DNA of 54,914 bases, filler included, from Sluysia triapertura (Eukaryota), in the NCBI GenBank assembly GCA_046118255.1. It is 4 parts of 4 records of this genome, joined end to end, with 100 filler letters (N's around TTAATTAATTAA, not from the genome) between each part and the next. Parts side by side here need not be neighbours in the genome. Positions count along the whole stretch, not along the records: positions 16,288 to 29,579 come from JBJNIA010048122.1; 3 more parts are not named here. The stretch is one strand, 5' to 3'. Shown here in pieces: positions 5,511-43,002 of this stretch (within the stretch, counting starts at the first letter, position 1; each line of letters begins with the position of its first letter). The notes below the pieces were generated by a model that had not been told where the DNA came from, did not search any database, and saw nothing but the letters and a program-made list of their open reading frames with translations. A program made the translations under genes and the position numbers.

Positions 5511-5564
5511 GAGAAATTAAGTCATAACTTGGCGATCAAAGATCAGCTTTTTTAAGATAAATAA

Positions 5565-6878: not shown

Positions 6879-7310
6879 TATTAATTACTATTTATTAATG
6901 GAAAATTAAGATTTATAACAGTGTTACTAATGATTGATTTTCTCACTCACGGAATGTGTAAAAGCATTTTGAAATTTTGAAAATAAAATGAAGCAAATGT
7001 GTCTCAGAAACTGCAATTTAAGATTATTTTTAAATATTTTCGAAGCTTAACGTATTTGTTAATAATCTAATTAATTTTACAAAATGTTATAAAAGTTTTA
7101 TAAAGTTATAAATATTATTTTAGAAATAATGCTATAAAATAATAATGCAAAAAATGAATTTTTATATAATTGACCTTAATACATTGAATCATATATTTTA
7201 ATTGGAATAGAATTATTAAACGACAATTAAATTAAGTAATTATTTTATATGTAACTAAAATAATGGAAAATATAAAATTAATTATTATTTTCAACAATAA
7301 TGAATCATAC

Positions 7311-10300
7311 TTATTAAATATTCTTCCAATTTTTTTGGAATGACATATAAATGTGTGGAATAACCATGAACATGACATACATAGTACAGCACCAGAGAAA
7401 AAACACAAAAATACAACTTTATCCATTACACTTAAAGTATTATAAGGATCTATCAAGTAGCATATAGTTATTGTTAAATACATAATTGAACCTTAATAAA
7501 AAATAAATTAATTTTTATACTTTGATAAAGTTGTTTCGTAGAAATAAAATCATAAAGAAACAAAAAAACTTCAAAACACTTAAAAACTATTTTTAGCAAA
7601 TCAATTAACAAAATATAAAAATTCATATATTAAAAAAATATCAAAATATAAAATTACAATTGTGAAATTTTATTTTCATATTGAATTTTATCATAATGAA
7701 TATCATATTAGTGAAAATATATAATCTTAGTTTTTTTCCATACAGTTATTTAATTTCAAAATGACTTAAATTGTTCAGAACATTTTGGTGACATATCCAC
7801 TAGGTTGAAATTACAATCCCTTGAAATTTTAATGTAATAATATTCAAGATTAATATAATAACAATGTTAATGAAAAAGAAATTTAAAAGAAAAATTTTGA
7901 TTGGAGAAAACTACTTGAATTTTAAGTACATAGGCAGTTACTTCGATTGTTATTCTGCATTGTTTTGCCAGTTATTTTTTGAAATTACAAACAATTGCTA
8001 CATAATCTTTTTTGGATATAATCATTTAATAATTTTTGGACTCGACTATTATTATTGAACATCAGCGATTTTCGAAGATAATATCAGTTTACAGTTGTAA
8101 GTTCCGCGGTTTACCTGATAAACCTTAAATTCCGATTTATTGAGAAGTAAATTCAATTCTAAAATAATATTGTTCTTTGTTTTATCTTGTATTATTAATT
8201 GGATAAAAATTTTAATTATTAACTTGGATTTTTGCATTTGTTATTTGCCTATATTAATATGTAAAATAAATACGTTTACAGTTCAAACCTAACATATTTA
8301 CACAATTTAAGGTTATACAGATTTCTGAGCATAAAATACTGACTATCCGTTAATTTGTTTGATTTGTAGCTGCAGATGCACCTACTTAACATCATAAAAC
8401 GTAGATTGTAGCTGAATACATTTAAACTTTTTTTCAAACCAAGTTCACTAAAAACTACACTATGTCCATATTTATTTTGATAAATAAATACATTTGAAAC
8501 ATTGAATTAAGAATACCATTTATAGATACATCAGCTGGTTTCGTAAATGAAAAAATATTTTTTTTCAAAAAATTATATTTCCTGCACTAAAATACTTTCG
8601 CTTTATTTTATTTTTATTTTGCTTTTCATCATGAATTGAAGAAATCGTCGACTTTTTGTCTAAGTTTTATTTTGATAACGATAATTATAACAATGATTTA
8701 CATTATTTTAAAATAACATATTTTTCTAATGTGTGTGTGTGTGTGTTGATGGCATCAGAAAGGTGTGTAGGCCAAGGGAAATAGTAATCATTAGAAAAAG
8801 CTGAATTTTTAAGAATTACAATTAATAGGCTAAAATGGTATAATAAAGTTGGCATTACTATTTTTGATGTACTAAAATTTCACCGAGTGGATTTAATACA
8901 ATGTGGATAAATGTTGTTTAAAAAACTAATGAGAAATATACTCTGTGATAGTAGTTTACAAAAGTTGGATTGACTGTGGTTTACTAGGTGGAAGACTGCT
9001 ATACTTGAATAATTTACCGTTGGACATGCATCTATTTTAATTAATTTTGATGTACAGATGTAAAATTTAAATTTAATCGACGTTATAAACCTAATACACT
9101 GAAATTATTTATGAATGGAAGTGTTTATTTCAACCGCACTGTCTAGATGCCGCTTATAGCTAAGAATTTATTTCGATTCTTATAGCCAATGAAGCTTTTG
9201 TTTCGATACACATATAAAGAAAACTTATATCAAAACTGATGTTAGACAATTTGTTTTATAGGTCCATTATTGTGCATAACGTATATTTTATTTATGATCA
9301 ATTTATACAAACATTTATAACTAAGTTTTACAAACGTAAAAATCACAAGCACTGTAAAAGCCCCTTTCCCTTCGCACTGATATTAAGTATGAGGTGTGAC
9401 CGCTTTATGATAAGCTATACCATGTGGTCAGAAGTTCTTAAGCTATGGTTAAAATCGCTGCATACTATCCTACTAACTGATATATAGGATAAAAGGTTGA
9501 GGATTACAAGAAGAGATTTAAGAACTATGTCTGAAATTGAGGATAAGCTTTTGTATAGGCTAGTTTAATAGAAAATTTGCAAGTGACAAATTTAAAACAA
9601 CGTTTTCATGAGTAACGCCATGTAAAGAATGTAAAGTGAAATAATGAATGATCCATAAACATAGAGTTACAAGGTGAGTTTGTTGAATTGAGTTGTACTT
9701 TAAAATAATTACAAAATAATAATAAAAAATAATTTCGTTATTTTTATGATTTATGGAGTAATTGTGTGATGTAAAATTAATAAAACTATGTTATGAGTTG
9801 AGCCACCACACATATGATGGTACATTTCGAACCGCATTTGATGATGTTTTTGGAAAACTTTGTTAGGTTTTTAATAATTAATTTAACTTTAAAAACAAAA
9901 TAATTTTAAATAATTTACTTGCTGACAAAAGTAAGTATTAAAAAGCCAATTGTTTTCTAATAACTAAGAAATAGAATGTATTGGATGAAAACTGATATGT
10001 AAACCAGTGAAATATCAATCACATTCGCGATTCACAATTTAATTACCATAATAAAGTTTAAGTTTCAAGTTCAGCACAAATTTATTTAATTGTACTACAA
10101 TTTTTCGTGCCTAAAAGATAGTCATTTTGAAAAAATTAGTAGGTTTTTTAAATTTTAAGGTTGTTTTACTCGTAAGTATAAAATATTAAAATAGTCTTAG
10201 TCTGTTTTAAAATTTTATACCCTGATTTGATGAGTGCAAAAATATATTTTAAAATGAAAAGTTTCCGAATTAAATACCTAAAAGGTTTTAATTCTAAAAC

Positions 10301-12016
10301 TCAATTGCTTTCTATATTATACTAAATTGTTCTCTATATCTTGACTGGACTATATCTCGATTGTATTATGCTTGTTATATTATATCAATTTTAGTGCGAT
10401 TTAATATTTAATAAACACTTATAAAAGACATTTATTATGAACTAATTGTTGCAAATTAATTTAAAACTTATTCATTATCTAAGATATAACATTTGAACCA
10501 CATGATTTGAACATTCATTAATTAAAAGAATATATCCTCTGTTAAGCATATGGACTTCCTATTAAATTAGTTTAACATAAATTATAATTCGTTGCACGGA
10601 TTTATTTAATAAGACAATTATAAGATTAAGAGATTAAAAGTTAGGAATTATCACTTTTAGTTGCAAGAATTTATTTTGCCAGGGTTAATATTAAGAAAAA
10701 CCACAGTACGTTGGTATTTGATTCTTCGATTTTAAATTTATAATTGAAAATTGCTTCAGCTTAAAAAATAACTTGCTTTTTGATAAAGCCTGTGGAAGTA
10801 TAAAAGTGTATTTATTCTACTAATCACATACATATATAAATACCAATAAAAATTAATTTAGTCATTATTATGTAGACAAATAAAACTGCAAAGTCCACAT
10901 AGTAGATGACTTTAATCATTTAAAGTTAATTAATGGAAACCGAAACAGTTTGTATGCGGATTAAAAGATTATTCATTGATTATTTTTGCAAATAGTAAAT
11001 GCATAGTCACGAAGTAGAAGAAACCAATTTCAATTGCAACTCAACCAATAAGAATTCAATTTTATCACATACGTGTACTTTCATATATAAAATGGATTAT
11101 TCAATAAATTTATATAAGTTATCGAATAAACTCTGCGACCAATGATTGTTTGAAGCTGAAAATTTTTACATTAATTGAAAGAAAATCCTTTATGTCATAC
11201 AGTTGTAATAAATTTGTTGGGTTAGAATAAAAGACCTAAAATTCACTAAACTGGTTCAAAATATTTAAAAAGATGTGATGCGTTATTTCTGATTGAATTA
11301 TTTCAAATCAAAGTTTTAATGAAAATTAGTGTAATTATAAACCAAAATAGTGTAAGAGTTGAGTTTTTATCATTTCATTACAATTACAGACTGAATTAAC
11401 TTCATGGTACGAGCATTTATACTAAGAAATAAAAATTGTGTTTTTGTTTTTATTAGAGATGTAACGATTGAATGGATTGAAGCAACTCAAAGAACTAAAG
11501 TATAGGCCAAAGTGGTCGAAGAAAACATTTTGTAAGGAAAATGCTACAATGTAATAAGCTTAAAAGTAAATTAAAGAAACTACGTTATTATAATGCAACG
11601 AGATTATAATTTGATAAATTTGCATAAAATTAAAAAGAATTCAGCGTTCTTAATTACTTGCACTATATTTTATTTAAAAATTCATGTTTAAATATAAAAT
11701 TTCAATTCTAACCTAATAAATGAGTCCATATGTTAAAAGTTTCTGAATGAAGTCGAAAAATAGATGTAAAGCACTTCCATACCGATTTTAATGGAGGTCT
11801 ATGTTGATTCAATATATATTGATTATCAGATAACCATACTGGTAAACTTGAAAACTCTACTAATTCATGAAGAACTTCAATTTTTTGATAACTGCTCACA
11901 TCATTTTCCTTAAGTAAATTTAGCATCAGACAGCTATTATTCTGAAATTAAAATTCCTTTTAGACATAAATTCATACCTTATAAGGTGGTAAAGTTTCAT
12001 TTTTAGTGCTTTCCAT
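7311..12016 (-). CDS. AdipoR: Adiponectin receptor / PAQR (HlyIII) family protein, 5' three exons: 12016-11978, 11941-11713, 7491-7311. The remaining exons were not found in the window and are presumably below position 1
   Basis: Spliced translation MESTKNETLPPYK|NNSCLMLNLL...LPVWLSDNQYILNQHRPPLKSVWKCFTSIFRLHSETFNIWTHLL G|SIMYL...DKVVFLCFFSGAVLCMSCSWLFHTFICHSKKIGRIFNK| contains the PAQR motifs LPxWLxDN, HRPP, H-x-ETxNIWTH and SWLFHTxxCHS. Introns are GT-AG: 11977-11942 (36 nt, phase 0) and 11712-7492 (phase 1). A further donor at 7310 falls where the conserved K|LDY junction is expected. Confidence 0.92.
8730..8746. repeat. (GT)n microsatellite
   Basis: tgtgtgtgtgtgtgtgt. Confidence 0.9.
9560..9810 (-). 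repeat. Repeat family D terminus (TGTGGTGG.CAAC start on the minus strand, LTR-like); other copies end at 31221, 38301 and 43330
   Basis: Shared ...(c/a)caccaca terminus preceded by G/T-skewed sequence. The left boundary is approximate. Confidence 0.45.
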
Positions 12017-12244
12017 ACACCTCAAAATAAAAGCGATATTTAATTGATTTTTTAAATTAAATATTTGTTATTAAAATTCGGCCAAATTTATAAATTAAAT
12101 AAAAATCAAAAAATATGATTCAATATGAAATTATAATCACACTAATTCTTTAATAAATTATATCTTAACTTAGTTTCATGGTAGTGACAGAGGTTTAAAT
12201 TATTAATTTATGTGCATAATAGATCATTTGAGTTCTGAAAAAGA

Positions 12245-12559
12245 TGTTGTGAACATAACCTTTTGTACGCTTTTTGGGGAATTGGTATTTTGTTTCCGCT
12301 ACACAAAGTAGTGACGTTTACCATATAAAAATTACCCAAAATTACAGCAATTATATTTTTTCGAATTTTTCTTAGGGCATAACGACTATTTTTTGTGGAA
12401 TTAAATTTACTTCATAAAACCCGGCACCTTCTCACTTCACAGCTGTGCAGTTCGAGGCCCTGACCACTAATCTATCATCAACCCCGCCTAACAATTTCGT
12501 TTTATTATAGTCAATTATAATATCATTATTTTGTGGCACTTTAGGCCTGTACCCCAACA
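12245..12559 (-). mobile_element. Repeat family T, copy 1: LTR-like element with internal tRNA-like module
   Basis: The minus strand starts TGTTGGGGTAcaGGCCTAAAGTGCCA...GAAATTGTTAGgCGG then a degenerate tRNA (gatagattagtggtcagggcctcgaactgcaca), matching 54776-54885. TGTTG...CAACA termini at 12245/12559; no TSD seen. Confidence 0.65.
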
Positions 12560-13104
12560 CTATTATTGTGATGCGCCTCACTTTCATCTTGTCGATTGCG
12601 CTAAATATTTTATTTATTGCTTAATGAGTTATAGTAGATTATGAAGCAGTATTTTCTTAGAATCTGAAGTTATATTTGATCTAAAAACATCTATAAATGA
12701 AATCAAAACATTATTTCTGAATAACACATCAATTTTATAATGATGATATTTGTTATAGTTCGGAATTAGAACGATAAAATATTAATTAAATTTATTACAC
12801 TTATTAATTTTATTAATTTAATTATTATTAAACTCTAAAATAATGATAATTTCACGGAAGAAAAACCATTTTCTAAAACGTTGCTGTTTAATCATAAATA
12901 ACACAAGTTAACATATAATTTATTCAGTTTAATCTCCATCAAAGGAAATAATATTTATTCCAAAATTTTGGATGTAACAACGATTTTGTTAAACAATTTA
13001 CCAAATTTCGTTTGGTTGCAAAAATTTTATTTGGATACTATTGAATATTGAATATGGATCACAGCTTAAGAATTCTTGATTTTATTCTACTAATGTTTTA
13101 TTAT

Positions 13105-13630
13105 TGTGAGAAAAAGTAAACGCAAACAGAATAAAATAAGTTAAAGATGTAAGTCCACTAATGTACTGGACTTACCTGCTGGGGCCAGCCGTTGGATTTT
13201 TATAAGATAATTTAAAAGAAAAGTAAGTTAATTGAGGGCCTTTCTATATGAAGGTGAATATTCTTGTTATTTTAGAAGATTTTAATTTGAATTGCAAAAA
13301 TCAAAAAATTTAAATAAATAAAATTTAATTGTATATTTTACAGAAGATTTCTTTATACGGAATCGTAAACAAGATTTTACTTACTAGAATTAAATTCTAG
13401 TTAAAATTAATGCATGACTTTAATCGATTTTAAAACTATGTTTAATAAATTACAAGGAAAAATATTTTATTTTCGTACAAGGAATACAACGAATAAATAT
13501 TATTAATAATAGTAATAAAATTTACATTAACTATCTCTAGTTAGTTATAATCAAATATATTTTATAAAATGATTTTTCTTAAGATCGTTATATGATCTAA
13601 AATATTATTAATAAATTTAAGTCAAATTTT
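13105..13630. repeat. Repeat family C, copy 1 (solo-LTR-like); second copy at 43940-44480
   Basis: Shared blocks tactggacttacc...gggccagccgttggatttt, agattttact.actagaattaa.ttctagt and ttttataaaat..ttttct..agatc. Confidence 0.8.
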
Positions 13631-13647
13631 ACTAGTGATATATAATA

Positions 13648-13770
13648 CATCTATCCCCCGATTTACACGGTAGATACGTTCCTGAGAAAAACGTAAAAAA
13701 ACTTATTTGGAAAAACGATAAAAACAAAAAAACTTATTTGGAAAACCGTGCAAATCGGGGGATAAGTGTG
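13648..13770. mobile_element. Tc1/pogo (Tigger-like) MITE, about 123 bp
   Basis: TIRs tatcccccgatttacacgg / ccgtgcaaatcgggggata (1 mismatch), TA flanks, and an internal direct repeat aaaaaaacttatttggaaaa x2. Confidence 0.85.
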
Positions 13771-16187
13771 TATTGTTCTTAAAAATATTAAACTAACGTT
13801 ACTTTATCAGAAAGATAATCAATCTTCTTGGTAACTACTGGAATGAAACTTTTAAAACAAAATTTTTTTTAAAATTCTCGTGTTGCGTTAAAAATCTTGT
13901 GTGTTGAATGTTAAAAATTTGTCTGTTTATATTTAAAAATTTAAAAATTAATAAGTTTTAAAAATTAAATTAGTGATGTTAGTTTTAATACAATTCTAAT
14001 AAAATTAAAATAGGTTAAAAATTAAAATAAATAAAAAATTCTTAGGGTATAAAATTAATATTTTGTAATTCCAATTAAAACAAAATTTATATAAAATTAA
14101 TCATAAAATTCACAAAATAAAATTTGTACTAATCGAATATATAAAATATCAATGTTATTATTATAGTGCTAATGAGTCACCAAGATATTTAAGTATGTCA
14201 ATGTTATTAAATCATCACTTAGTGAATCTAATTAATCACCACATTTTGAATATTAAATTAACGAGTTTGTAATTTCATGTCTGTAAAATGACAATGAAAC
14301 AGAAGCATTTTAATGTTAACATTTTATTTGCATTACATATAAAGTTTCATTGGTCACAGTACATTTTACCTGTCTGGAATGCATGAAATTTTGAATTGTG
14401 TATTTATTAAAAAGTATTAAAAATATTGTAGAAGTGATTTTTAAAATAAAAACTATTACTTCCGAATATACATTTTAAAATAATTTTATAGTTTTTACTT
14501 ATATATGTTTATTATTATTCAATTTTTTGAATTTAAATGCCATTTGATACTAACAAAATTTCATTTAATTAATCTTTTTATTTTGGAATTCAAAATCTGA
14601 ATTAGTCACTAAGTATTTTTCCGTACTAATTAATGAAGTATGCGCACATTGTTCAATTAGTGACTATTCCATACGGTACTGTATTAAGGAAAATTTATTT
14701 ACCCTAATCTAAAATATATTTAAGGATTTTGATATATAACATATTTTAAGCCATTGCATATTTATGTATTGTAATAGTTATATTTAAACTACTAAACAAT
14801 CTGCACATATTTTTAAACGCATTGTAAGTATTTAATGACAATGAAAGTCATGTATTTTCATCAAAATAATTTAAAATAAAATTTAATAACTGATTAGTGC
14901 CCCCCACCACTCTATCATTCATTTAGCTCACCAAAGAGAACTTTAATTACATTTAATTTTATACTTAAACGTTTTCATTCTGATTATTTCTTTAATTACA
15001 ATAATTTCTTGATCATTTATTTATTCTTTTGTAAGGATTTTAAATTCAAGTTACAAAATAAGGCTTTCAAATTTTCTTTTAGGTTTTTTTTCCTATGTAG
15101 AATTAAAATTTAAGTATTATTCTGAAGTAGTTGCAAAAATAATTTAGTCCTTGAAATATATGCGGAATGGTTTGAATGAAGTGAAAACTGTTTGTCGATA
15201 ATATCGAAGGTAATGTAAAAATATAAGAATTATCTGAATGTATAGCTCCATGAAGTTGTTTTCATAAAACAAAATCAAATTGTATTATTGAGTTCCTTAA
15301 TTATGAAACTCGTTAATATAAGTCTATTATCTTAAAGTGTATATTCTTGTCAAATGTTAGCTATTTTATATCACTTGTTCAGTATAAAGACTCCAAATTA
15401 ATATAAAATTATTTTTGATCTCTATTATTCTTTAATTTATTTTCTCGATATCGGTCTCTAACTAACAAAGAACTTTGCTTAATGATAATCTATATCTAAC
15501 AAATATTTATATATGATAACGCGAACCCTATACTAGTCTCAGCCGTTCGAGATGGAAGTGCTTTAACAAGTAAAATAACGCTTTGCGACACAAGGTTTTA
15601 TTTTATTCAAATTTTATTTCTAAGAATTTCCGCCCTTACTCACGTTTTAACATTCTTTATTCTGGAAGATCCAATTTATTCAACTTTTATTTTATAGACG
15701 TTAATTGATTAAACTTTATATTATCAATCCCCTTAGATTTTCTGTTGATATAAAGCAAAACCTATAAAAATAATAAGTTTTATTTAGATATTACAATCAA
15801 TTTTATTACAAAAATTTGAATTAAATTTAGAATAAAAAATAAGAATTTATAATCCTGTATAAATTTTGTACATGTAACGCTAAGTAAACTCAATGATTTT
15901 ATTTTTAATCACCATTCGAATCTAATTAGAGTACCACACAGTATTTTCAGACATTCAGTTACGTAAAATTTTATTTACAATGTTTTTATAAGTATTTTAA
16001 AATATTTTATGCATATTGTGTCGATATTCTGCAGTAATATTAATTTAGTTTCTACATAGATTTGTACTTAGATAAGTTTTAATTTACTTTTGATTATTTA
16101 AGATATTAAACATTTTTAATTTCATAACTTTCTAATTTGTGTGCAGATTTATAATTAGGTTATTTACTTTTTTTCGTTTTTAGAAGT

Positions 16188-16287
16188 NNNNNNNNNNNNN
16201 NNNNNNNNNNNNNNNNNNNNNNNNNNNNNNNTTAATTAATTAANNNNNNNNNNNNNNNNNNNNNNNNNNNNNNNNNNNNNNNNNNNN
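16188..16287. other. Assembly gap (100 bp) with TTAATTAATTAA six-frame-stop spacer
   Basis: N44-TTAATTAATTAA-N44; identical constructs at 29580-29679 and 42903-43002. Confidence 0.97.
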
Positions 16288-16539
16288 GCTAAAGTTTGAA
16301 TAAGTTGTGTCACCCCTGGTTATAATTTGTTTTTAAAAGAATAATTCATTTTTATAAAGAATAGCTTGTATATTCATTTTTATAAAGACAATTCGTATTG
16401 TTATAATTTATATACTCTAATTGTAGTTTTGATAATCTAACAAATATATTGAGGTTTTGAGTTTATTTAATTATTGAGCTTTGATTTAATAATTTGGGAA
16501 TATAAAAGTATAGAGACACAACAATTTCAAAGACGCAAC

Positions 16540-17270
16540 ATATGGATAGAATATCGAGGAGATTGGCGAAACCTGATTAAGCAAAAAGATAAATAAACTT
16601 CCATATGTTCACATATATATTAACAAATAAGGACTTACTTAGTAGTGTTATATCTAGACTAGGAGATTCGACTAATATTATTCTCTTCGTAATAATTTTA
16701 CTTGATATGTTTAGTGTAAATAAAACAAACAGATATGAAATTTTCTTTAATGGACACAGAAGATTGCTCCGAACAATTAAAAATTAAATGTTTAGTAACT
16801 GCACTGGTAAAAGTGTGTTCTCTAAAACGATCAGGTGCAAAATAGTATTGTGGATGTCACAGTAACTATTCAATAATCGATGTTTCAAATATTTTGAAAT
16901 CTTTTAAAATATTACTTAACAATTGCAAGGATTCTTTTTAAAATCGGTTACATAAATCTATATAAGGGAGAAAACTCATAATAATGAATAATGAAAAGGT
17001 AATTTATAATATTAGGACTGCAGATAATGTACGTCTAGATAGAACGTGTGAAAGATGCACTATAGAATATGAAGAAAAATTTATCATAACTTAGTAGACC
17101 AAGAAACATACTAGTAAGTTTAAAAACATTTAACAAAAGCTTTGATGTAGAAAAAGCCACTAAGATATTATGCTGATTTGTAGGATTGATAAAACTAGTT
17201 GTGATACAGGAGAATCGATTTTAATTTACAAATTAAATAAGAACATACCCATTAATATTCTTAAAACAAA
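16540..17270 (+). mobile_element. Possible decayed 3' end of a LINE ORF2 (C-terminal Cys motif)
   Basis: Remnant NIRTADNVRLDRTCERCTIEYEEKFII near 17010-17090 resembles the R.C..C..IEDE.H.I..C tail of non-LTR ORF2. Confidence 0.3.
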
Positions 17271-18311
17271 TGAAGTTTATTTATATCAGGATTTAAAGAT
17301 TTGAATAATTCATAAAGAGTTAAAATATATAAGGAAAATTTAGAAAGGAAAAGCCTACAAAAATAGGAAGAAGGTGGTTTAACATTTATGTTAAATAAAG
17401 AAGTAACCGAAACTATCGCGGAACATATTATTACACAAGCTATGAAAGACATTAAATTAAATACATATTAAATACATATTTTAATACATATTTTAAATAC
17501 ATATTTTAAATATAAAATTGGTTTATACTACGACGTAAGACTAATGTCACTGGGGAAAGTTTACGGAGCTATTATCGCAAGAGACTGTCAATTAAATAAT
17601 GAAATTTAACGCACTAAATTAGCTGTTGTAATTCAAATCCCGATCTAGTAGAATCAATATTAGCATTTGAAGAAAGCTTTTTCGGTAGATTATTTGGATA
17701 TATCTTATATACCTATTAATGCAAATGAGTTAAAATGCAATTATGGGGATTTGAGTGCATAAATGAATTTCCAGTAACTTACGGGAAAATTACATACATA
17801 TCTTGAACCTGTTACCAAACAATAAATTTAAACCTAAAGACATACATTGTTCAAATATCGTGGCACCAGAATGTAGAATAGACGATAATTTGTGGATTTC
17901 CTTACCCCACAGAAGTCACATTAAGGCACCGGAAGTTATAAGCTTAACTGAATTATGAAGTAAATTAAAAATTTTTAGCAACTAAAAAATTCCGCATTCA
18001 GGTATTTATAGTAATGATGACATGCAAACAATTTGGCATGAAATATTATTTCCTATTAAAAGATCAAAAGTTCTAACCGATACTGTAAATAAGGCTCTCT
18101 TAGAGAAAGACGATGGAGTAAATTTTTAATTCTTTTTAGGACAAGATTATTTTAAGAAAGCCCAAGATTCATTAAAACAAATTAGGGATAGTTTCTTTGT
18201 TTTAGAGAAGTTTTCCTAAGTTTAATAGGCATATATATGGCGTTAATTATTTTTCAGGTGTTTTCTGTTCTAGGAATCTATATGATGTCAGGACTGACAT
18301 GGACACAATCT

Positions 18312-20278
18312 TTAGAGATCACAAAGTAATATTTCATGATCAATTGCATGAAAAGCAGCAGACAGGTCTAGCAAAATCATCAAAACACATTTATTGTGTT
18401 TAAAACAATTTAAATCTTCACAATTTATTCTTAAAATAGCCGCTTCTGTTGAGTGATAGGCCCTATAGGCTGATTGATACATTGTAAGAAGTTTATTTAC
18501 ATCTAAGAACTTTGACAATTGTTGCAAAACTGCTTTTTCAATCAATTATTTTTGATACATGTCTGTAATTATTTAAAAGATGAGATACTATAGCGGATAC
18601 TTTTTCACTTGAAGGGAATTTTAGACTATTAATAATTTTCAATAAAATCGGAATAATTTTAGTCAAAATTGAATTATTTTTGATAAGTTTGGTTGTTTTT
18701 GGGTAGGGTTAGGGTTAGAAAAATAATCATCATCACTATTTTTCTTTAATTCAAATTCGTTTGTTTTTCTTCTTTTGAATTTCTAATTTAATATTTGATC
18801 TATTAATGCTATTTCGTATGTTTTCAATTTTCGATACAAAAAATTTTAAAAGTCGTAAGATGTAATTTTATCATTTTCAAAATGATTTTCATTTTTTACC
18901 AAATAATTTATTTAATAATTTATAAATATTCGATTTATTGGCTTTAAACGGATTATTATAAAATCCACTGTTTTACTTTTAACAGCAAACAATTGTAAAT
19001 TTAAATTTATGCATCATTTTTTGTTTCATCAGATTTTTTAATTTTCCATTTTCTTTCTTTGCAGCGATTTATTCTTCGTAGCTTAATAATCTCAGAATCA
19101 AACCAAAGTTTTCATTAACACTATATTTTACAGCAAAAGGTTCATGATTGTTTAAATAAAAGGATAGTGTTCTATTGTATAAATTGCTTAGTGTATCTTC
19201 TGTAAGATTTATTTCTTTTTCAAACTTGATCGATAAGCCTGTGCTCAACTCTTCAATATCAATTTTTGATAAGTTCCTATATTCAATCTTTTTATACCAA
19301 ACACAATTCGTAATCTTAAATTCTACTTTAAAAGTAAATAAATAATGATCAGATATATTTAATAGTTTATTCACTTTTATATGAGTAACGATATTACTAT
19401 CAATATTGATTATTAGTAAATATAATATATTTCCACATTTATGAGTTTAAAATGTTACACGGTTTGTTAAAATGAATATATTAAGTAATTTGATGAATGT
19501 TGTATTTGTTTTACATTCTTCTTTCATGAATTAAATATTTTATCATTTTGAACAGACCTAACATTATGAATATCAAATTTAATATAGTCTTTTGGTGCTT
19601 TTTCAGACTCTATACAATCTTAGTTTTTCGATTTAAATTCATAATTTTCTTATTTTTTAAAATTTCCATGTACTTTGGACATTTATGTGAATTAGCTGCA
19701 TGATTAGTCATTATGACATTTACACAATTTATACACTTGTAGAACTGTTCGTTTTCTTTATTCGGACAAGTTTCTCCTCTATGTTTTTTTTAGGGAAGTA
19801 TAAACATATTGGATCATTTAACTTATACCTGCAATTATGAGAAGTGTGACCAAAAGCTTGGCAGTGATAACATTATATAATATGGTAATGACTCTACAAT
19901 TTTGAAAACCTATATATACCTTACCATTCAAATCAAAATAGTTCTTGATTTTGCATCCGACTTTAATTTAAACTTTTTTAAGTATACCTTTTTAGCTAAT
20001 CTTTCAATTTCTATATTTTTATCAATAATATCAGTGATTATATCACTATTACCAATATCATTACTTACATCATTAATTACAATTTTAGGTAGGACTACAT
20101 TTGGGTTTTCCAACTTGCATTTAAAATGAGATTGGTTAATGCCATCATTAGCTGATTTAATACTTTCCTTATTAGCAAAGTCAATTAATAAATTGCCATT
20201 TGTAGGGAATTCATCACATTTCATCACATAAAAACACTCCACATATACACAAACTATTAAACAAACTACTAAACTCAT
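18312..20278 (-). mobile_element. Decayed L2/CR1-group LINE: ORF1 with three CCHC knuckles, APE endonuclease end, RT N-terminal part (3' truncated)
   Basis: ORF1: PKIVINDV, CYHCQAFGHTSHNC (about 19830-19872), ICLY..KHRGETC, KCINC...HAANSHKCPKY. Endonuclease end: ISDHYL..F....KKIEYRNLSKID. RT: EKAVLQQL..LLTMYQSAYRAYHSTEAAILRI...LLDLSAAFHAIDHEILL. Confidence 0.9.
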
Positions 20279-20520
20279 TTAAAAATAAACACGACCATCA
20301 CATCTAACTATCATGAACTATCGTTATTATTACGATTCATATCATATTAAAATATGTGTAACAATTTAGTCATTATTGTTATATAATAAATATCAAATAG
20401 TAACTTCTATAATAACCTTTGTAATGATTTTCATGATAAAATTTCATAATAAATTTCATAATAAAATCTCAACAATTCTGTACTAAAAAACATAACTGCA
20501 TCATTGTTATCATTATTATT

Positions 20521-21198
20521 ATTTCTTTTTATCCTTATTATAATATATCTTCATTATCTATTGAAAAGGTTTTAAGCAAAAAAAACAAAAACGCTTGTTC
20601 AAATGAAAACAGTAATGAACGTCAAAAGAAAGTACAAGAAGCAATTGTCAAATTGCAACAGAAAATCGAAGAGCATGATACAGTAGAAAAACCTAAGGTA
20701 ATTCCAAGAACTATCGAAGATTTAGGTGAAAAAGATGTAGTTCCGGAAAGATTAGAACAAATAAAATTAGAAAGAAGGCAAAATCAAATTCGTCGAAGAC
20801 TTGAAGATGAAATGGAACGTTTTCAAAAATCGGAAATCAGACAATATCAAGCTACGATCTGGAAACAAAATAAAAGACAAGCCAGAGATATGTTACTTGA
20901 AAAAGTGCAGAATTTAAAACAGGCTGTAAACCCAGAATTAGAAGCTAAAGTTCCTGTTACTACATTAACGGATTCGTTGAAATTGATCGAAAAAGAATTG
21001 AATTTCTTCGACAACAACTACTAGCTCGTGAAAAAGATCGTAAAGAACGTGATGAAGCAGCATTAAATATGTTGAAAACATTGAGGATGCTCAGCGTTTA
21101 CGACACAATTTAAGATGGAGTGAAGCGCAAGATCGAATGTTGCATATGTCTCGCTGAACTGAATGAACTGGATATTTTCATTATTCCTAAAAATTAAT
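20521..21198 (+). pseudogene. Charged coiled-coil protein followed, after a frameshift and stop, by a truncated RING-finger start
   Basis: The frame is open from at least 20521 through the 123-aa E/K/R/Q-rich ORF. It continues in a shifted frame as RQQLLAREKDRKERDEAALNML, then KIECCICLAELNELDIFIIP, and breaks where the RING CxH would follow. Confidence 0.45.
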
Positions 21199-24100
21199 AA
21201 TCAAATTTATTAATATTTATATACTCACTACTGAAAGTAGATAAATTTATATTAATAACTATACTTAATGATAAAACGCTATTCAATGATCCAATGCTAC
21301 AAAATAATGTTGAGTATATTGTCAGATTTAAAAGATTATCATACAGATGAACTGCATTCTACTGAAGCTACACTTACCGATTCATACTGATAATAATTAA
21401 TCAATTTGAATATTTTTTAATGGAAATATATATTTATTGAACTATATATTACCAATTTAGTCTAAACTTTAAAAGTTACAACGTAAAATAGATTTATTAT
21501 AAACTGCTTCATAAATGTACCATTTTTGTTGATTTATTATGCCTTTTCTAAATAGCATTTACTGTGATGATATAAAAAATTATCTATTTGAATAAATACT
21601 TTCATAGATTATTTTATTTACAAAATAAAATCAAATATTTATACCGCATATTTTATTAACAAAATATTTTTAGTAACAAAAGTAAAAAACTAAAAAATTT
21701 CCGACGTTAAATTAACTACTGCAGATGTTAAATTATAATATGCGTTTTAGCAATGAAATAATGAATAATAATAGTTTATCATTTGCTAATGTAGTCTGTA
21801 TACTCACTGAACAAATTCTACATAAGAAATCAATACATATTATCTTAATTAACATTATATATGTATCAATATTAGTATTACTATTAAGACTATTATTATT
21901 ATTATCATTATTAATAATATTATCATTTTTATTGTCATTATTATTATCATTATTATGTTTTATATGAAATCATTGTTTTTGTCTCATTCTTAGCAAATTA
22001 AGAAACTAATTTGAAAAATAATCTTCTTATCATTATTAGTATTATATAACTAAAATAGCTTATTATTTATACAAAACATTTTAATTTACGTCTCGTACGT
22101 TTTTTCATAAAATTATGATTAAATTATTTGTACAAAAGTGACATATATATGTATATATATACTCAATTATTATTCAAACTTTTCACAAAGTTTGTAATAA
22201 ATGGTGCTCAAATAAATCAACATTTTATAGATAAATAAATGCATTTAAATGTTATAAAATATTATAAATTTATTTAAATAATAACAATAATCTAATATCG
22301 AAAATTTACTCAAGAATTACAATATGACCACAACAAGTAACAACGAATTATAAATTTCAGTTATAACATAATTAGAATTAAAGTTTTAATTTAAAATTCG
22401 GTATATATTGATACCTGTTTCAAAGTACAAATCAGTCGACATTATTAACGGTTTAAATCTAATACTTGATTGTTGATTATAGCAATAATTGAGAAACAAT
22501 TTTCTAATTTTCCAATATTTTATTGTTGCCATTTAAATTTATTGGTAATGTTTTGTATAAAAGTTATAAAAGTTATTCAATTAATTAAGTTTTAGTTTCG
22601 TTATTTTTGAAAGTTAATTGCCGATCAGTACTCAGTTCTGTCCAGATGATAATTCTAGTTTTACCTTTAATGACAGGTTAAAAATTTCTTTGAAAATGTA
22701 AAATAAATGGTTATCGAATAATAGTTATGTAATAATAATTATTATTATTATTTGATATAAATAATTTAATAATTTATAATAATAATTTATTATAATAATA
22801 ATACTTTTTTGTGCAATAACCTAAAAATATTGACAAATGAAATTTATAGTAAAGGAACAGTAAATTCGTTTTATTCTCTCATTTAAAGAAACATTAAAAG
22901 AAGAAACTTCTTAAAATTTCTTAAATTTTGTTTTGATCAAAGGGGTTTGAAAATGTAGTCAAATTCTGAGAGTCAAGTATTGATCATAAATTTGTTTCTA
23001 TGAATAATTTTAAAAATGTTTCATTTTTATATTTTTATTTTGTTTCTTTATCAAATCTCAAAGCTTTTGTTACTATAATGTATAATTAATTATTAATTAT
23101 ATTAATGTTAGAAGGCATTTTCAGAACTAACGTCTGTAACAAACTAACATCAATGAATAATAATGAAATAATAATAATACTAATTATTAAATATTAATAG
23201 TAATCGTGAAAATATCAAGATCAAGAATCAAGTCATCAAATATGTGTGGTACTATTAAGTGGTACTACGAGCTAGAATAAGCTATGTCAGTAATCACTCG
23301 AAATGCATATTACTTAATTAAATGCATAATTAAATCCAACAAATATTTGGCACAGTTTACAAAAGTTAATTCCATAGTGATATAAACATTTTGACTTAAT
23401 TAGTTTAACAATTAATTTTAATTCAACTAAATTTAGTGGTCATTGTTGTTATTCAGAGCATAACACTAATTTGCACGTGCAACTTTGGCATACATTTTGA
23501 CATACAAAATATCACTTCTATTAATTTTTTGATAGCTGTTAATTCCAAATCAGACGACAACAATTTACTTATAAGTTTATCACATTTAGTGTAATTTTTA
23601 AATCTTAGGTAAAATCATATTAAAATTTTTCAGGGCATTTTAAACAATGGTCAATAATATTTTCAAAAAATTATTACTAAATATTTAAATATTACTACGT
23701 TAATAATTCTGCATTACAATTACATATTGCACTAAATTTTTTAATTTGACTTAGTAGCTATAGATTCTTCTCTTCAAAACATTAATTAAAGATTAATTTT
23801 TTTTATTTTGTTGATAAAACGTTCATAAAAATTTACTTAAAATATCATTACGATTATTTTCACTACATTTTAAAACCTTAACAAAAATCGTAATATATAT
23901 CAAAGAAAAGATAAAGTTTATAATTTCAAATTTCTTACTGCTAACATAAATGTTACACTCAATTTTATTATAAAAACAACAATTGACCAAGTTCTTTCTT
24001 ACAACACAACAAACTAAATCTTAGATTGCAATCACACGAATCTTAAACATTTTCCAGTTTCCATTACATTTAATGTCTCAAAACTGTTAATGCAATAAAA

Positions 24101-24321
24101 GTAACAGCGACGTCAGAGTAATAACAGTAACATAAATGACAATGCGTCATCTACAAATACTTTCCATGACAATTTAATCACTCTTCATGATCACTTTATT
24201 TTCCACCAAACAATGATTTGCTTCAACTACTCCCTTATTTTCAGGACGTTTTCAAATATTGATTTTTCTAAAAACAAAAAGAAAACTAGTTGAACATATC
24301 GCAGAGACTCACTAGTAGTAC

Positions 24322-24980
24322 TGTTAGGTTATCGTCACAACCTTTTTAAAATTACAAAACAACAAAAAAGCAAAAAAAAACTACTTACAACATTAATATA
24401 AGCTATTTTCTAATAAAGAAACTTATTTTCTTAATTTCTAAAAAGAAAATTCCTTACTAAAAATAGAAAAGAAGGTTCTAAATGTTCTAGAATATTCTAG
24501 AATTATACTCGCCCATGATTGGCTGCTGGTTTATATAAGTAGCTGTAGTTAATCATAAAGAAAACACAATTTTAGGCGCTATTTTGGATTTAACTATTAT
24601 TATTAAACTCCAATAATTTAGTCCTCATTTTGGAGTTTACTGTAAATTTTTAAACTCTAATTATTGAGTCTGGATTTCGATCATCATAGTCAATTGTCAT
24701 ACGTCTCAAACAGAATCATTACCTCTCCTTCGCTTCAATTGAATATCAATCTAATTACCATGAGTGTGGAAAATTGCTTTTGTTAAGATGCTTTTTATCT
24801 TCCCAGAGAAGGTAAAAATATTAAAATTAAACGATTTTTATTTACCCCGATGTAACGAGGGGAATATTTTTAATTTAAACTTAAATAGCTAAACAATTAA
24901 ATATACATGATGATTTTAATTTTAAATTTAATTATTTTGTCTTCGATCTTATATAAACCTTTAATATTTGCCTGTTTGAT
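24322..24980 (+). repeat. Repeat family A, copy 2 (solo-LTR-like; TG start, ATTGG and TATATAA boxes)
   Basis: TGTTAGGTT..cgtcacaacc start; ttctagaat.ttctagaa; attggctg; tatataa; tttttatcttc/gaaggtaaaaa hairpin; cgatgtaa. All are mirrored at 27280-27851. Confidence 0.75.
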
Positions 24981-25089
24981 TGTTACTAATAAAAATTATT
25001 TTTTTAATTGTTGTCATTGACAAAGTACATTGAGATTAAAGACACTCACTAGTAGACATTTTTTATTAAATTTGTATTTGCTTAAGAAT

Positions 25090-25215
25090 AATTACAGGAA
25101 CACATTCTATACGATATAAGACGTTTACTGTAACAGGACCCTGTTTAGTTTTCATTTTTTCTCTAGGTTAGGGTTAGGGTTACTAATAAAGATTACTAAT
25201 AATCTTTATTAGTAA
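25090..25215 (-). repeat. Repeat family B, copy 2, with adjacent (TTAGGG)n-like repeats and a perfect 16-bp hairpin
   Basis: Minus strand cagggtcctgttacagtaaacgtctt; taggttagggttagggtta at 25164-25182; ttactaataaagatta-ctaa-taatctttattagtaa at 25180-25215. Confidence 0.7.
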
Positions 25216-25560
25216 TAATTATACAAATCACTAGGTAATTCACTTAATGCACTTTCTGATAATTATTTTGAAAATAACTGAAAAAATTTAATGACAAGAG
25301 ATTTTAATATAAAAATAAATGAAGAATACAAGTAAAAAATTCGTAGAATTATTAAATATACTAATTTAATGACTCGCGAATGTGGAAGTATATTAAATGT
25401 ATTAATAATGTATTGGCAATATTTTTACTGATATCAAAGTGAATGATGTCATAAACCCCTAACACATACAACACAAACATCCACTACACTTTATACCAAC
25501 ACATAATAACTTAAATAAAATATGATATTTTTAACTTGAATAATATATAATATACTGTAA

Positions 25561-26859
25561 TTTAAACAGATTATAATATACTTAAATTACAATAACTTAT
25601 TATATAATGTTACTTTTGAATTTCATAAACAATATTTTAAAATCGATCTTAATAATGCATCGGTACACATGTACCCTGTTACTTTTGAATTTCATAAAGA
25701 TTATTTTAACTTCTGTAAACATAAGATAGAATATTTTAAAGTTGATCATAATAATGTATCAGTATATGTGTACCCTGATATTTTCGAATCTTATAAGAAT
25801 CATGATGATGTTATTAAACATAAGACTAAACACTACGTTAAAGTTTCTGATTATAGTATACCAGTACAGTTGTATTCTGGCACGTTTAAGTTTTTCGGAA
25901 ATGATGGTACTCCTGTCCAAACCCATCCGGCAACTCTATCAAAGTCAACACAGCACCAACAACAAACCAGAAAATCTATCACAATTAATAGCGGCTTCGA
26001 ATGCAACGACTGCAATGACGCCATAGTCATCAACATAAAATGCGTCGCGTGCTCCCTTAACGTAACCAGAAAAATCTGCTCTAGGGTTCAGGTTAAGACC
26101 CTATATGATATTACTGATCATAAGGATGTTTGGTTCTCATATAAGACCAAACCACTACGGGATAACTTAACCCTATGCGATTATAGCATTTTTGACGGGG
26201 CTATAATCGCGATCACACACAAGTTAACCGGCGGTTCTGATGTTGACGCCGATGACCCACTCGCAGACAATAAGGCCCAAAAGAGAACCCCATCTTGTGA
26301 CACACCCTTCTTCACAGATGAAAACGGGTCCCCAAATACTTGGTTTTTGGTGGTCGAGTCACACTTTAAAAGGAATTTAGTGCGAAGACAGACCGCCAAA
26401 TTCCATCAATTACTGCCACTCTTACCACAACCCCTTCTAACCAAATTAAGTAATAAAATCCCAATTTGCCTGTAGTCCGCCAATGCATATGACGACCTAA
26501 AAGAAGTCATACTGCAGCATTACCGCCCAGACACGCGAAAGGTCTTCCAAGACTATTTCAAGAAACAATCACTTGGAAACCTCTCACCATCAGAATTCCT
26601 GTCCAAGATCAAAACTGATCTACGCCCATTCGGATGCGACAAGGACGAAAATCACGACGTCCTTAAGAGGTTATTCCTTGACGCAATGCCAGACATAGTC
26701 AAGGTAGTTCTGGCTGTCAGTCGCACCACGGATATTGACGATCTGGCCCTCTTAGCAGACAGTATCCTAATTCAATGGCGTACCGATCACCCAGACAAAG
26801 TCAATCTGATACAGGGCGCAACAAGCACACATACTTCACCAGTGGCCAAAATGATATAA
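25561..26859 (+). mobile_element. gag: Gypsy (CsRn1-like) gag ORF with N-terminal extension and ubiquitin-like domain; one in-frame TAG at 26473-26475; pol absent
   Basis: The frame is open from 25561 (first ATG 25669). UBL C-terminus KPLRDNLTLCDYSIFDGAIIAITHKLTGG ends at 26235. Gag follows: PFF...PNTWFLVVESHF...QTAKFHQLLPLLP...*SANAYDDLKEVILQHY...QSLGNLSPSEFLSKI...LKRLFLDAMPDIVKVVLAV...IDDLALLADSIL, to TAA at 26857-26859. GC content is visibly higher than in the flanks. Confidence 0.85.
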
Positions 26860-26977
26860 AACTAAATGGAATTTCTTTTAATATCTTTAACTTCATTAAT
26901 TCTCCTTTACAACTCTCTTTCATATTTCTTTTACATTATTATAATGAACAATATTTTCCATCAACAAACGTTTCGTA

Positions 26978-27050
26978 ATGCTGTGGTTTTCTTAATGCTA
27001 AACCTACGGCAAAATAAAATTGAGCAGGGTCCGGTTACAATAAGAGTCTT
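26978..27050 (+). repeat. Repeat family B, copy 3
   Basis: atgctgtggttttcttaatgctaaacctacggcaaaataaaattgagcagggtccggttacaataagagtctt matches 1842-1915. Confidence 0.75.
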
Positions 27051-27189
27051 ACAACTAATAGTTGACATCTCTGTAGCTTATAAGTGAAAAAAGGTCGTAC
27101 TTAACATATTTAATATTACTTTTAATACTTTAGAGTGTCTCAAATCTATTTATCGATTAACAATTAACAAAAGTCAAATTTTATTATTA

Positions 27190-27851
27190 AAAATACAAAG
27201 GAATTAAGTACGATAATAATAGTAGTAATAGTATAATTTATAATCAAAATTTTTTACAAATCTTTGATTTTAATTTATAATTTTAATGAAAAATTCCTCT
27301 AATTACATCGAGGATATAAAAAAATTTAATTAAATGAAATATTGTAAATGGATTTTAATATTTTTATCTTCTCCTGGAAGATAAAAATACCTTACAAAAA
27401 ACGAATTACCGTTAGCATGGAAAATAGAGTATCCAGAATTTCCAAATTATATAGCTGTTCCAAATGATGCTGTAACAAAGATTTGAATTGGTAAGTCACC
27501 TGACAAAAATTGATACCAAAATAGCGTGAAGCAATTAACTAAAAATATGGCGATAAGCAACTAACTAATAAAATGGCGATTTTCATTAAACTGATGCTGG
27601 TTTATATACTGGTCATCAGCCAATGAAAATCAATGGAATGTTCTAGAACATTCTAGAAGTTTCTGTTCTATTTATAGAAGCAAAGTTTCCTTTTTAGAAT
27701 TTCTATTTTCTTTTTTTGAAAATAAAATTTCTTTTTTGGAAAATAAATGTTTTTTGGGTATTTGGAAACTCTAAAATATTTGTTAAATGATTTAAATGAA
27801 ATTTTAATAATATTTTTGATAATTTTAGGGGGTTGTGATGGCAACCTAACA
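27190..27851 (-). repeat. Repeat family A, copy 3 (inverted relative to copy 2)
   Basis: The reverse complement starts TGTTAGGTTgccatcacaacc. It contains ttctagaatgttctagaa, attggctg, tatataa and a perfect 13-bp hairpin at 27359-27389. Confidence 0.75.
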
Positions 27852-27907
27852 GTAACATAAGTTTCAAGGAGAATGTATAGAAAGATATTCAATTAAATGA
27901 AAGTTGT

Positions 27908-28061
27908 NNNNNNNNNNNNNNNNNNNNNNNNNNNNNNNNNNNNNNNNNNNNNNNNNNNNNNNNNNNNNNNNNNNNNNNNNNNNNNNNNNNNNNNNNNNNN
28001 NNNNNNNNNNNNNNNNNNNNNNNNNNNNNNNNNNNNNNNNNNNNNNNNNNNNNNNNNNNNN
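27908..28061. other. Assembly gap (N run)
   Basis: Run of n. Confidence 0.99.
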
Positions 28062-29504
28062 TTATTGTTACTAATTATTTTACTGTCAACTTTGACAGTT
28101 TTCTACTTACCAGTTAATTTAGTTACTGTTAATTATTGACAGCTTTTAATTTGTTTTTCAATTTCTTTGATGTCATCATTGGACATTCTTTTGTTGGTGA
28201 TAAAGATCTGTTTTCATTGGTTACTAAAAATTGTTCTTCATGAATACGAGATGGTATTGGTCGTTTAAATTATGTACATTCAATTTAGTGCAGTATTTTA
28301 TTCACAAGTGCAATTTACAAATTTGCTTACAATTCGAGAATCATTTTTCTTTAGAATGAATTTAAAATTAACAAAAATTAAAGTACACAGATCATAAGAA
28401 TCACTAAATTTATCTAATTATGCAGACAGATAATATTGAAGATAATGTAAATATACAAAGCCAATTTATATTGTTTATACTTTCATTTACGTTAAATAAT
28501 GAACAACAACCTACTTATTTTAGCTTTCATAGTAATCACGCTCAAGTAGAACTGTCAATAAATACATAGTTTTTAACGCGAGAACGTTTCAGAATACACT
28601 TTTACCTACAAGTTCTATGTCAGAAAAATTAAATTGATGATTAAAAATTATTTTGATGATAATATGTTAACAACGTCAACGACGATAAAAACTCAGCATT
28701 TTGACTTCGATCAGTTTGATATTAATAAAATAGATACTGACAATAATGACAATTTATTTAATTTAACTATTTAATTTATTCGACACTCCTTTTAAGTTTT
28801 GGTGATAATAATGATGACGATACCGAATTAGACATTGAACCAGATTTATTAGATGCAGAAAAATTATGGCAAAATGATACTCCAAATACACTTTGTAATA
28901 ATATTTCTACGTGTGAAACAACGTGTAATTTCATTGAAACCGAATTAGCTTGTCGAATAGTATCGTGTTTTTTTAAATATCGTACTCAAACAAATGAACC
29001 TTTAGTTTTTATAACTATCTCAATTAAATTTCAACTCTTGAAGACTTAATTCGTTCAAAAAACTATTTAAATGTCGATTTACTTAGTCTAACAGGATGAT
29101 TTAATACCTTTATTTTATTTAAGTATCGTTATCAAAATTAACACCTTAGTATGGTTTTATTCGATCTTTTGTAATCTTCAAAATTATGCTTGGGTTATAT
29201 TTCGTGGACAAATATTTTAATATCTTCTTTTCTTTATTTGGGATAGCTTTATTATCTAATTTTCTTTTCTTGATTCTTCGATTCTTGATATCAAATTTTA
29301 ATTCTTAATAATATTTGTCTTAAACTCTTTTTCAATTATTATTGAAAGTCTGCTATTTTCTTTATTATCTTTAATCGCTTTAGTTATTAGGACAAACTTA
29401 AATTTAACAAAATTTTCTAAACAAATACGACTATTTTTTTCGTAAAATTTTAACTTTAACTATTTTTTAAAATCTTTCAATAATTAGTAAAACAATACAA
29501 AACT

Positions 29505-29579: not shown

Positions 29580-29679
29580 NNNNNNNNNNNNNNNNNNNNN
29601 NNNNNNNNNNNNNNNNNNNNNNNTTAATTAATTAANNNNNNNNNNNNNNNNNNNNNNNNNNNNNNNNNNNNNNNNNNNN
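29580..29679. other. Assembly gap with TTAATTAATTAA spacer
   Basis: N44-TTAATTAATTAA-N44. Confidence 0.97.
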
Positions 29680-42902: not shown

Positions 42903-43002
42903 NNNNNNNNNNNNNNNNNNNNNNNNNNNNNNNNNNNNNNNNNNNNTTAATTAATTAANNNNNNNNNNNNNNNNNNNNNNNNNNNNNNNNNNNNNNNNNN
43001 NN
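42903..43002. other. Assembly gap with TTAATTAATTAA spacer
   Basis: N44-TTAATTAATTAA-N44. Confidence 0.97.

Follow-up and report, generated by a model that had tools for sequence, protein, structure and literature searches.

The stretch of DNA analysed here, termed the window, comprises 54,914 nucleotides (filler included) of the Sluysia triapertura genome (GCA_046118255.1) in four joined parts; it is AT-rich animal DNA with a GC content of approximately 25%. On its plus strand lies a dead fragment of a Ty3/gypsy LTR retrotransposon lineage, in which a leader, a ubiquitin-like domain (UBL) ending in di-glycine (GG) and a Gag protein follow one another in a single frame. This frame comprises 304 open codons (25561-26475), which run from the leader through the UBL with its GG and the acidic linker into the capsid, of which they cover the first half, and it continues past the stop at 26473-26475 as far as 26859. 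The features of the locus and of its immediate surroundings are:

24318..25160, plus strand: left arm of a degenerate inverted repeat of about 850 bp that brackets the locus (local alignment)
25200..25445, plus strand: decayed non-LTR (LINE) endonuclease-like fragment, upstream of the leader and outside the element (79% over 71 nt to 19369-19439)
25561..25971, plus strand: AT-rich leader, in frame with UBL and Gag, 137 codons without a stop, about three imperfect internal repeats
25972..26235, plus strand: diverged ubiquitin-like domain, start uncertain (25972-26023); profile, fold and Pfam matches
26230..26235, plus strand: di-glycine, predicted deubiquitinase cut site; tail K-L-T-G-G, next residue Ser
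26236..26280, plus strand: acidic linker, predicted N-terminus of mature Gag; low pLDDT, position matching the N-terminal tail of plain Gags
26281..26778, plus strand: two-lobed retroviral/Arc-type capsid domain (DUF7041, CsRn1-like Gag); profile and fold
26473..26475, plus strand: premature stop within the capsid, private to the window copy as far as seen
26779..26859, plus strand: truncated end of gag, where GC drops from 0.50 to 0.28
27010..27854, minus strand: right arm of the same inverted repeat as 24318..25160

The fusion of a UBL with intact GG to Gag, as given in a preliminary description of this DNA, was confirmed, since frame, GG codons, linker and Gag are all present. Of the roughly 71 residues said to align with ubiquitin without gaps, the last 32 do so, whereas the N-terminal half requires a gap. 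Two analyses place the start of the UBL differently, with 25972 and 26023 as bounds, and the pLDDT of the structural model is 56-68 in this region. Two CxxC pairs nine residues apart lie at the same place (26002-26052); they are not seen in relatives, yield a weak C1-domain match (E=0.084) and represent either a possible zinc site or chance. The copy is regarded as dead because it contains an internal stop, because its gag ends before the nucleocapsid, and because pol, a recognizable primer-binding site (PBS) and LTRs were not found for it. Relatives have a coiled coil, a double CHCC knuckle, a frameshift site and pol beyond the point at which this copy breaks off. At the stop codon 19 contigs of sequencing run X1, corresponding to 592 of the 615 depth units there, differ from the window.

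Sequence profiles and structure prediction agree on the nature of the two domains. Taken alone, the window UBL matches the Pfam ubiquitin family with E=9e-4 and 19.3 bits, below the cut-off of 25.4, and it is 25% identical to a ubiquitin-like reference unit. A profile built from the UBLs of 48 relatives, the window excluded, was run against 1067 six-frame pieces of the window and picks out the UBL with E=2.7e-9, the next piece following at E=0.15. An AlphaFold model computed with a 37-row alignment reaches a mean pLDDT of 83.8, compared to 33.6 without the alignment. Residues 3-71 of the model resemble ISG15 (Z 7.9, 2.1 A, 66 residues aligned), ubiquitin (Z 7.7, 2.1 A, 65 aligned) and Fubi bound to USP36 (Z 7.4). 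Residues 87-252 superpose on the dArc1 capsid (Z 9.2, 6.9 A, 160 aligned) and on the C-domain of the MLV capsid (Z 9.1, 2.5 A, 80 aligned), and overall the dArc1, MLV, PEG10 and Copia capsids are found at Z 8.1-9.2, which indicates a two-lobed fold of the retroviral type. These Z values are middling by the tool's own scale and gain their weight from the agreement with the sequence profiles; Foldseek returned the same two fold classes, ubiquitin-like and capsid, with no match at E<=0.001. Similarly, the window Gag matches DUF7041 with E=6e-5, below the family cut-off. The window UBL is thus predicted to be a beta-grasp domain with profile homology to ubiquitin, and the model bears out the earlier assignment to this fold (Z 7.7-7.9 for ubiquitin and ISG15). 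When ten diverged UBLs are combined into a profile, it matches ubiquitin over residues 4-76 with an E of about 1e-6 per unit, and SUMO is absent from the best 60 of its 385 matches, which points to a derivation from ubiquitin rather than from a SUMO-like protein. Cleavage by ULP/SENP proteases, which the preliminary description had offered along with deubiquitinases, is less likely, because the domain appears ubiquitin-derived and not SUMO-like.

The UBL-GG fusion is not a one-off, but the mark of a CsRn1-like Ty3/gypsy lineage. A protein search of 1.84 billion representatives returned 1358 matches at E<=0.001, the best 150 of which were examined; this set contains duplicates and is biased toward UBL proteins, the query itself having contained the UBL. 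In a quick Gag-only tree of 164 rows, which are not independent, the window sits in a clade of 61 rows (SH-aLRT 96), and the lineage falls among the DUF7041 Gags. Ten rows of this clade are too short upstream; among the 51 with at least 60 aa there, the GG is strict in 50 and the 51st reads A-Y-G-G. A neighbouring group of 17 rows contributes five further UBL-GG rows, and a UBL score was obtained in 0 of the 79 rows in the other half of the tree. An unbiased set is provided by 21 metagenome loci, from one subfamily and four assemblies, which were found through two C-terminal Gag patterns alone. All 18 of these loci that cover the junction carry the GG, 16 in frame and two in frameshifted copies. 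The expectation that other copies possess the UBL and conserve its GG therefore held in the clade as well as in the pattern-found loci. For all 20 clusters of relatives that were looked up, the source is a metagenome or a run assembly, and the fusion may have been overlooked for this reason. Further searches yielded little: word-indexed protein searches gave 0, 6 and 1 matches and added nothing, the piece from the window had no usable match in the Atlas, where protein P0008 matched only DUF7041 clusters (at 0.85), a broad alignment was nowhere conserved enough to support a locus scan, and scanning found no relatives in viral contigs.

Sequencing runs give a second view of the family. From run X1, 13779 contigs were placed on 24200-27900, and their summed depth, which is not a copy number, amounts to 10680-20375 over the UBL and 18080-29272 over the capsid, compared to 35-155 in the lowest bins. 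This shows that a family with both UBL and capsid parts is abundant in run X1. Among the 40 copy differences listed of 529, none falls within the GG codons; synonymous changes account for 5 of the 7 in the UBL and for 17 of the 24 in gag. A chance chimera or a gene-prediction artefact might be suspected at a locus that is a decayed nest of repeats, in particular since several of the relatives in the databases are spliced gene models joined to host exons. This explanation is extremely improbable in view of the junction in 18 of 18 DNA loci, a run X2 contig that covers 26174-26324 and hence crosses the GG junction, and the largely synonymous nature of the best-supported UBL differences among copies.

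The relatives reveal the structure of the complete element. In 15 of 15 relatives gag terminates at AAAAAAC plus a stop, pol follows in the -1 frame, and the order reverse transcriptase (RT), RNase H, integrase was found in all five relatives scanned. A purine tract and then TGT follow pol, and 14 loci contain the PBS TGGTGTCAGAAG, a type assigned to tRNA-Leu in an excerpt of PMC8905726 and to tRNA-Leu(CAA) in an excerpt of PMC7997516. In the loci L003, L006 and L015 the LTR start (TG) is joined to host flank, and these are therefore true 5' LTRs; the contigs of the relatives are collapsed, such that two LTRs with a target duplication are not visible. In Gag, the window copy is approximately 30-36% identical to the relatives on which the proposed start of the gag frame in the LTR is based. 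In L004 (1-8349) a unit of 4965 bp is repeated head-to-tail with 99.9% identity and one shared LTR, reflecting a tandem array, a circle or an assembly artefact. The last 40 codons of pol encode a basic-x-V-x-F...W motif in 11 of 11 loci (L001, L004, L005, L007, L008, L010, L011, L012, L014, L017, L020). We take this motif of the integrase tail to resemble the PP1 phosphatase docking motif RVxF, in which case it might be a second contact with a host enzyme.

The lineage shares with the CsRn1 clade (CsRn1, PwRn1, AgCR, Kabuki, Boudicca) the DUF7041 capsid, the CX2HX9CX3C knuckle, the RT-RNase H-integrase order and, according to the parts of PMC2582038 consulted, a gag that overlaps pol through a -1 frameshift. 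The knuckle occurs in 34 of 40 lineage proteins and is doubled in 28 of them, whereas 71 of 111 others have a single one; the window copy ends before it. Unlike the CsRn1 clade, the lineage carries an in-frame UBL-GG ahead of Gag, its gag frame opens inside the LTR, and its primer site is of the tRNA-Leu type instead of the tRNA-Trp type of the clade (PMC2582038, same parts). The lineage hence appears CsRn1-like by Gag tree and features, and membership of the clade is not claimed, since its primer site is not of the tRNA-Trp type. In the parts of PMC2582038 and PMC8220671 consulted, the word “ubiquitin” occurs 0 times.

In the relatives the leader is the LTR and the primer-binding site read in frame, a point absent from the earlier reading. 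Twelve loci, from one subfamily and four assemblies, contain both PBS and UBL. In ten of them the stretch from PBS to UBL (45-166 codons) is stop-free in the gag frame, with shuffle P values of 0-0.032 each, which overstate the significance, as the loci form one subfamily and tree rows are not independent. All ten possess an in-frame ATG within the LTR and ahead of the PBS, so that their leaders measure 77-247 codons, while the other two frames usually contain many stops; in the remaining loci, L015 and L020, the LTR-started frame is shifted once against gag. In 9 of 12 loci the first ATG after a shared TTGTTT-AT-rich LTR motif is the in-frame one and lies 30-80 nt past the motif; in L010 the first ATG is out of frame. 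The motif, chosen after looking at the sequences, may be the promoter. At the protein level, 13 of 27 predicted proteins (some of them spliced models), including the best hits of the window, P0002 and P0003, contain the peptide encoded by the PBS ahead of their UBL, and it occurs 0 times in 10643 residues downstream of the UBL. Which frame the PBS is read in varies between families.

The frame of the leader thus seems to be kept while its peptide is largely free. For the pair L001/L002 dN/dS amounts to 0.90 in the LTR part of the leader, 0.37 in the part after the PBS, 0.48 in the UBL and 0.13 in Gag. The corresponding ranges are 0.41-0.95, 0.23-0.97, 0.25-0.50 (like-for-like UBL pairs) and 0.05-0.14, where saturated pairs have no value and leader alignments are noisy. 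The leader is possibly not pure junk, as the part after the PBS is partly constrained and the window leader contains peptide-level repeats. In the window copy, none of 20000 shuffles left the leader frame open, the other frames contain 3 and 29 stops, and the sole in-frame ATG of the leader lies at 25669, 189 codons upstream of the end of the GG. The window copy has lost its 5' end, and from its relatives we infer that its own family shares the LTR start. A candidate splice acceptor is recognized in the sequence at 25570, and in-frame tandem duplications are present within the leaders of the window (25609-25890), L003 (472-637), L010 (2315-2488) and L012 (1306-1473).

The UBLs of the lineage differ widely in age. 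Seven distinct rows (P0005, P0088, P0105, L008, L012, L017 and L020) carry a UBL that is 47-61% like a ubiquitin-type unit, while the remaining rows reach at most 32%. All seven fresh UBLs are without Lys63, five are without Val70 and all retain Lys48; the signalling surface seems to go first in fresh copies of ubiquitin. Five of the seven belong to a subfamily whose other members share the diverged form, and the other two are found in the other Gag group. In the Gag tree the fresh L020 groups with the old L010 and L014 (95/98), a grouping rejected by the UBL data (AU p=5e-5; the groups were named after seeing the trees). The data do not reject a tree in which the five fresh-ubiquitin Gags of the subfamily form a single clade (AU p=0.096). 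These results are most simply read as one old capture and at least two later replacements by fresh ubiquitin, together with module swapping; long conservation with repeated independent decay would be an alternative history. The long residence of the UBL proposed earlier applies to the window copy, whereas other branches carry much fresher ubiquitin.

What is conserved in the diverged UBLs is the core and an R-L-x-G-G tail. Among 39 of them, the GG and an aliphatic residue at position 73 are invariant (39/39 each), Arg72 is kept in 29, and the core residues Leu43 and Leu50 in 29 and 30, respectively. On the surface, Arg42 and Val70 persist in 2 of 39 each, Ile44 is not among the five commonest residues at its position, and the Ile44 patch is gone. 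Of the traits of type I ubiquitin-like modifiers, the window UBL shows the C-terminal di-glycine, but it has Ser at 44 and Thr at 70 and hence does not possess the Ile44/Leu8/Val70 binding patch; its tail also departs from ubiquitin, with Lys at 72 and Thr at 74. Proline blocks deubiquitinases, and Ser, Ala, Gly, Thr, Val and Met are stabilizing residues under the N-end rule. One of these six follows the GG in 43 of 52 cases, as against 35% of linker residues, whereas Pro, which makes up 8.8% of the linker, follows it in none of the 52. Ser occurs in 23 of 52, and the defined Ser N-terminus of Gag envisaged in the preliminary description is therefore frequent and not general, a small residue or Met being the rule. 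The GG lies at a median of 26 aa from the capsid, and plain Gags start about 29 aa ahead of the same point; the GG thus sits where plain Gags have their start Met, and in six rows a Met is still there. Taken together, this pattern of conservation reads as that of a “cut tag” and not of a signal.

The GG and Arg72 also serve activation by E1. Their retention, along with Lys48 in 19 of 39 diverged UBLs and in all fresh ones, would suit a freed leader-UBL that acts as an effector, either as a conjugatable modifier or as a decoy for host E1, deubiquitinases or ubiquitin receptors in the service of counter-defence. Transposons do engage the ubiquitin pathway, as Ginger1 transposases with OTU and Ulp1 domains illustrate (excerpt of PMC2836005). 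We consider such an effector rather unlikely: the Ile44/Val70/Arg42 surface is lost in the diverged UBLs, Lys63 and mostly Val70 are missing even from the fresh ones, and the piece would bear a long leader that differs between families. The loss of this surface likewise makes a signalling or conjugation role doubtful, and with it the conjugatable leader-UBL-GG module that had been proposed for this locus. Alternatively, Gag could retain the UBL for a matrix-like or targeting function. In favour of this are the window tail, which deviates at positions 72 and 74, and the comparable divergence of many integral UBL domains. This role is improbable, since the GG is invariant although identity elsewhere in the UBL falls as low as 20%, since the position after the GG never holds Pro and favours small residues or Met, and since without a cut the variable leader would likewise stay on the capsid.

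Cleavage of the fusion by a host deubiquitinase after the GG, taken by itself, is highly probable from the sequences compared here. For the whole proposal, in which the leader starts in the LTR, the UBL folds and the cut frees Gag, we put the probability at about 0.7. The transcript would begin in the LTR, and ribosomes would initiate at its first AUG and read U5, PBS and the packaging region into a peptide of little sequence importance. The UBL would then fold, and a host deubiquitinase would cut after Gly-Gly. Gag and Gag-Pol, the latter made by way of the -1 slippery site that follows Gag, would in this manner gain a fixed, stable N-terminus at the position of the plain-Gag start Met, whatever the length of the leader, and the leader-UBL piece would be thrown away. 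A deubiquitinase domain was found in none of the five pol frames scanned. A point against the proposed cut is that the UBLs, as putative substrates of host enzymes, are only 20-30% like ubiquitin. With odds a little better than even, the lineage has more broadly swapped the start codon of Gag for a captured ubiquitin cut tag, turns its LTR, primer site and packaging RNA into a leader peptide that is thrown away, relies on a host deubiquitinase for its first maturation cleavage and restores the worn tag from host ubiquitin mRNA.

Ubiquitin has a chaperone role in fusions with ribosomal proteins, and the UBL might be cut off and yet have the yield or folding of Gag as its main job, the open leader being a by-product. 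Purifying selection on the UBL fold (dN/dS as above) and the replacement of old UBLs by fresh ubiquitin in some branches are compatible with this explanation. It is unlikely, as it leaves unexplained why long AT-rich leaders are free of stops from an ATG in the LTR in 10 of 12 loci, which release of Gag from an LTR-started leader would account for.

Several known systems share single features with this arrangement. Ubiquitin- and FUBI-ribosomal protein precursors are cut such that UBL-GG comes off the mature protein, and FUBI is itself a diverged UBL that retains only fold and tail. In these host genes the UBL forms the very N-terminus, whereas here it is internal, follows a variable leader and resides in a mobile element. 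Translation of the yeast Ty1 GAG starts at an AUG in the LTR and runs across the PBS; in this copia element the LTR/PBS stretch is part of Gag, and there is no ubiquitin tag. Cytopathic pestiviruses (BVDV Osloss, CP1, CP Rit) have likewise captured ubiquitin inside a polyprotein, and cellular hydrolases generate the N-terminus of NS3 even with foreign residues in front (excerpt of PMC8310069). The pestiviral inserts were captured recently, are still near-canonical and occur in single strains of an RNA virus; the tag described here is fixed across its lineage, is down to about 20-30% identity and serves a capsid. The gypsy-related Ginger1 DNA transposons carry a protease (OTU or Ulp1) on the transposase (excerpt of PMC2836005), in contrast to the lineage, which carries a predicted substrate and in whose five scanned pol frames no such protease was found. 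Among the literature matches listed, to which most subscription journals, Repbase and GyDB do not contribute, no paper describes a UBL-Gag fusion.

If the proposal is true, a retrotransposon requires a host deubiquitinase for its maturation, which would offer the host a new means of control. Next to scanning and internal entry, the tag would represent a third way for a retroelement to translate Gag when the 5' region ahead of it is long, structured and rich in AUGs. A minimal recognition code for deubiquitinases might then be disclosed by the dozens of natural UBLs that keep only what cleavage needs. For annotation, gag frames would start in the LTR, where gene callers cut at an internal Met or fuse the frame to host exons.

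The DNA around the locus contains decayed repeats. The inverted-repeat arms align with a local score of 333, compared to 47-182 for 44 random pairs from the window; a third copy of the arm is located at 1726-2735, and the repeat cores are very abundant in run X1. The arms were considered as termini of the element itself and rejected, given that the relatives are LTR elements and the third arm copy lies elsewhere without gag. The family of about 850 bp is old and abundant and possibly represents a non-autonomous DNA transposon that received LINE and LTR insertions. The stretch at 19369-19439, to which the fragment upstream of the leader is similar, adjoins an RVT_1 match at 18315-18545; we presume an endonuclease for the fragment from motif likeness. 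A decayed LINE occupies 18315-20278 on the minus strand, with RVT_1 (E=5.5e-8) and an endonuclease-like frame, and a second inverted pair is found at 61-243 and 4046-4232. Contig joins, at which N runs surround a 12-base linker with stops in all frames, lie at 16188-16287, 29580-29679 and 42903-43002, and the long-range order is unsure. On the minus strand, an adiponectin-receptor-like PAQR gene is represented by exons at 7235-7492 (HlyIII, E=2e-9) and 11711-11947 (recognized by eye), and 5344-5535 gives a weak Homer-binding match (E=1e-4).
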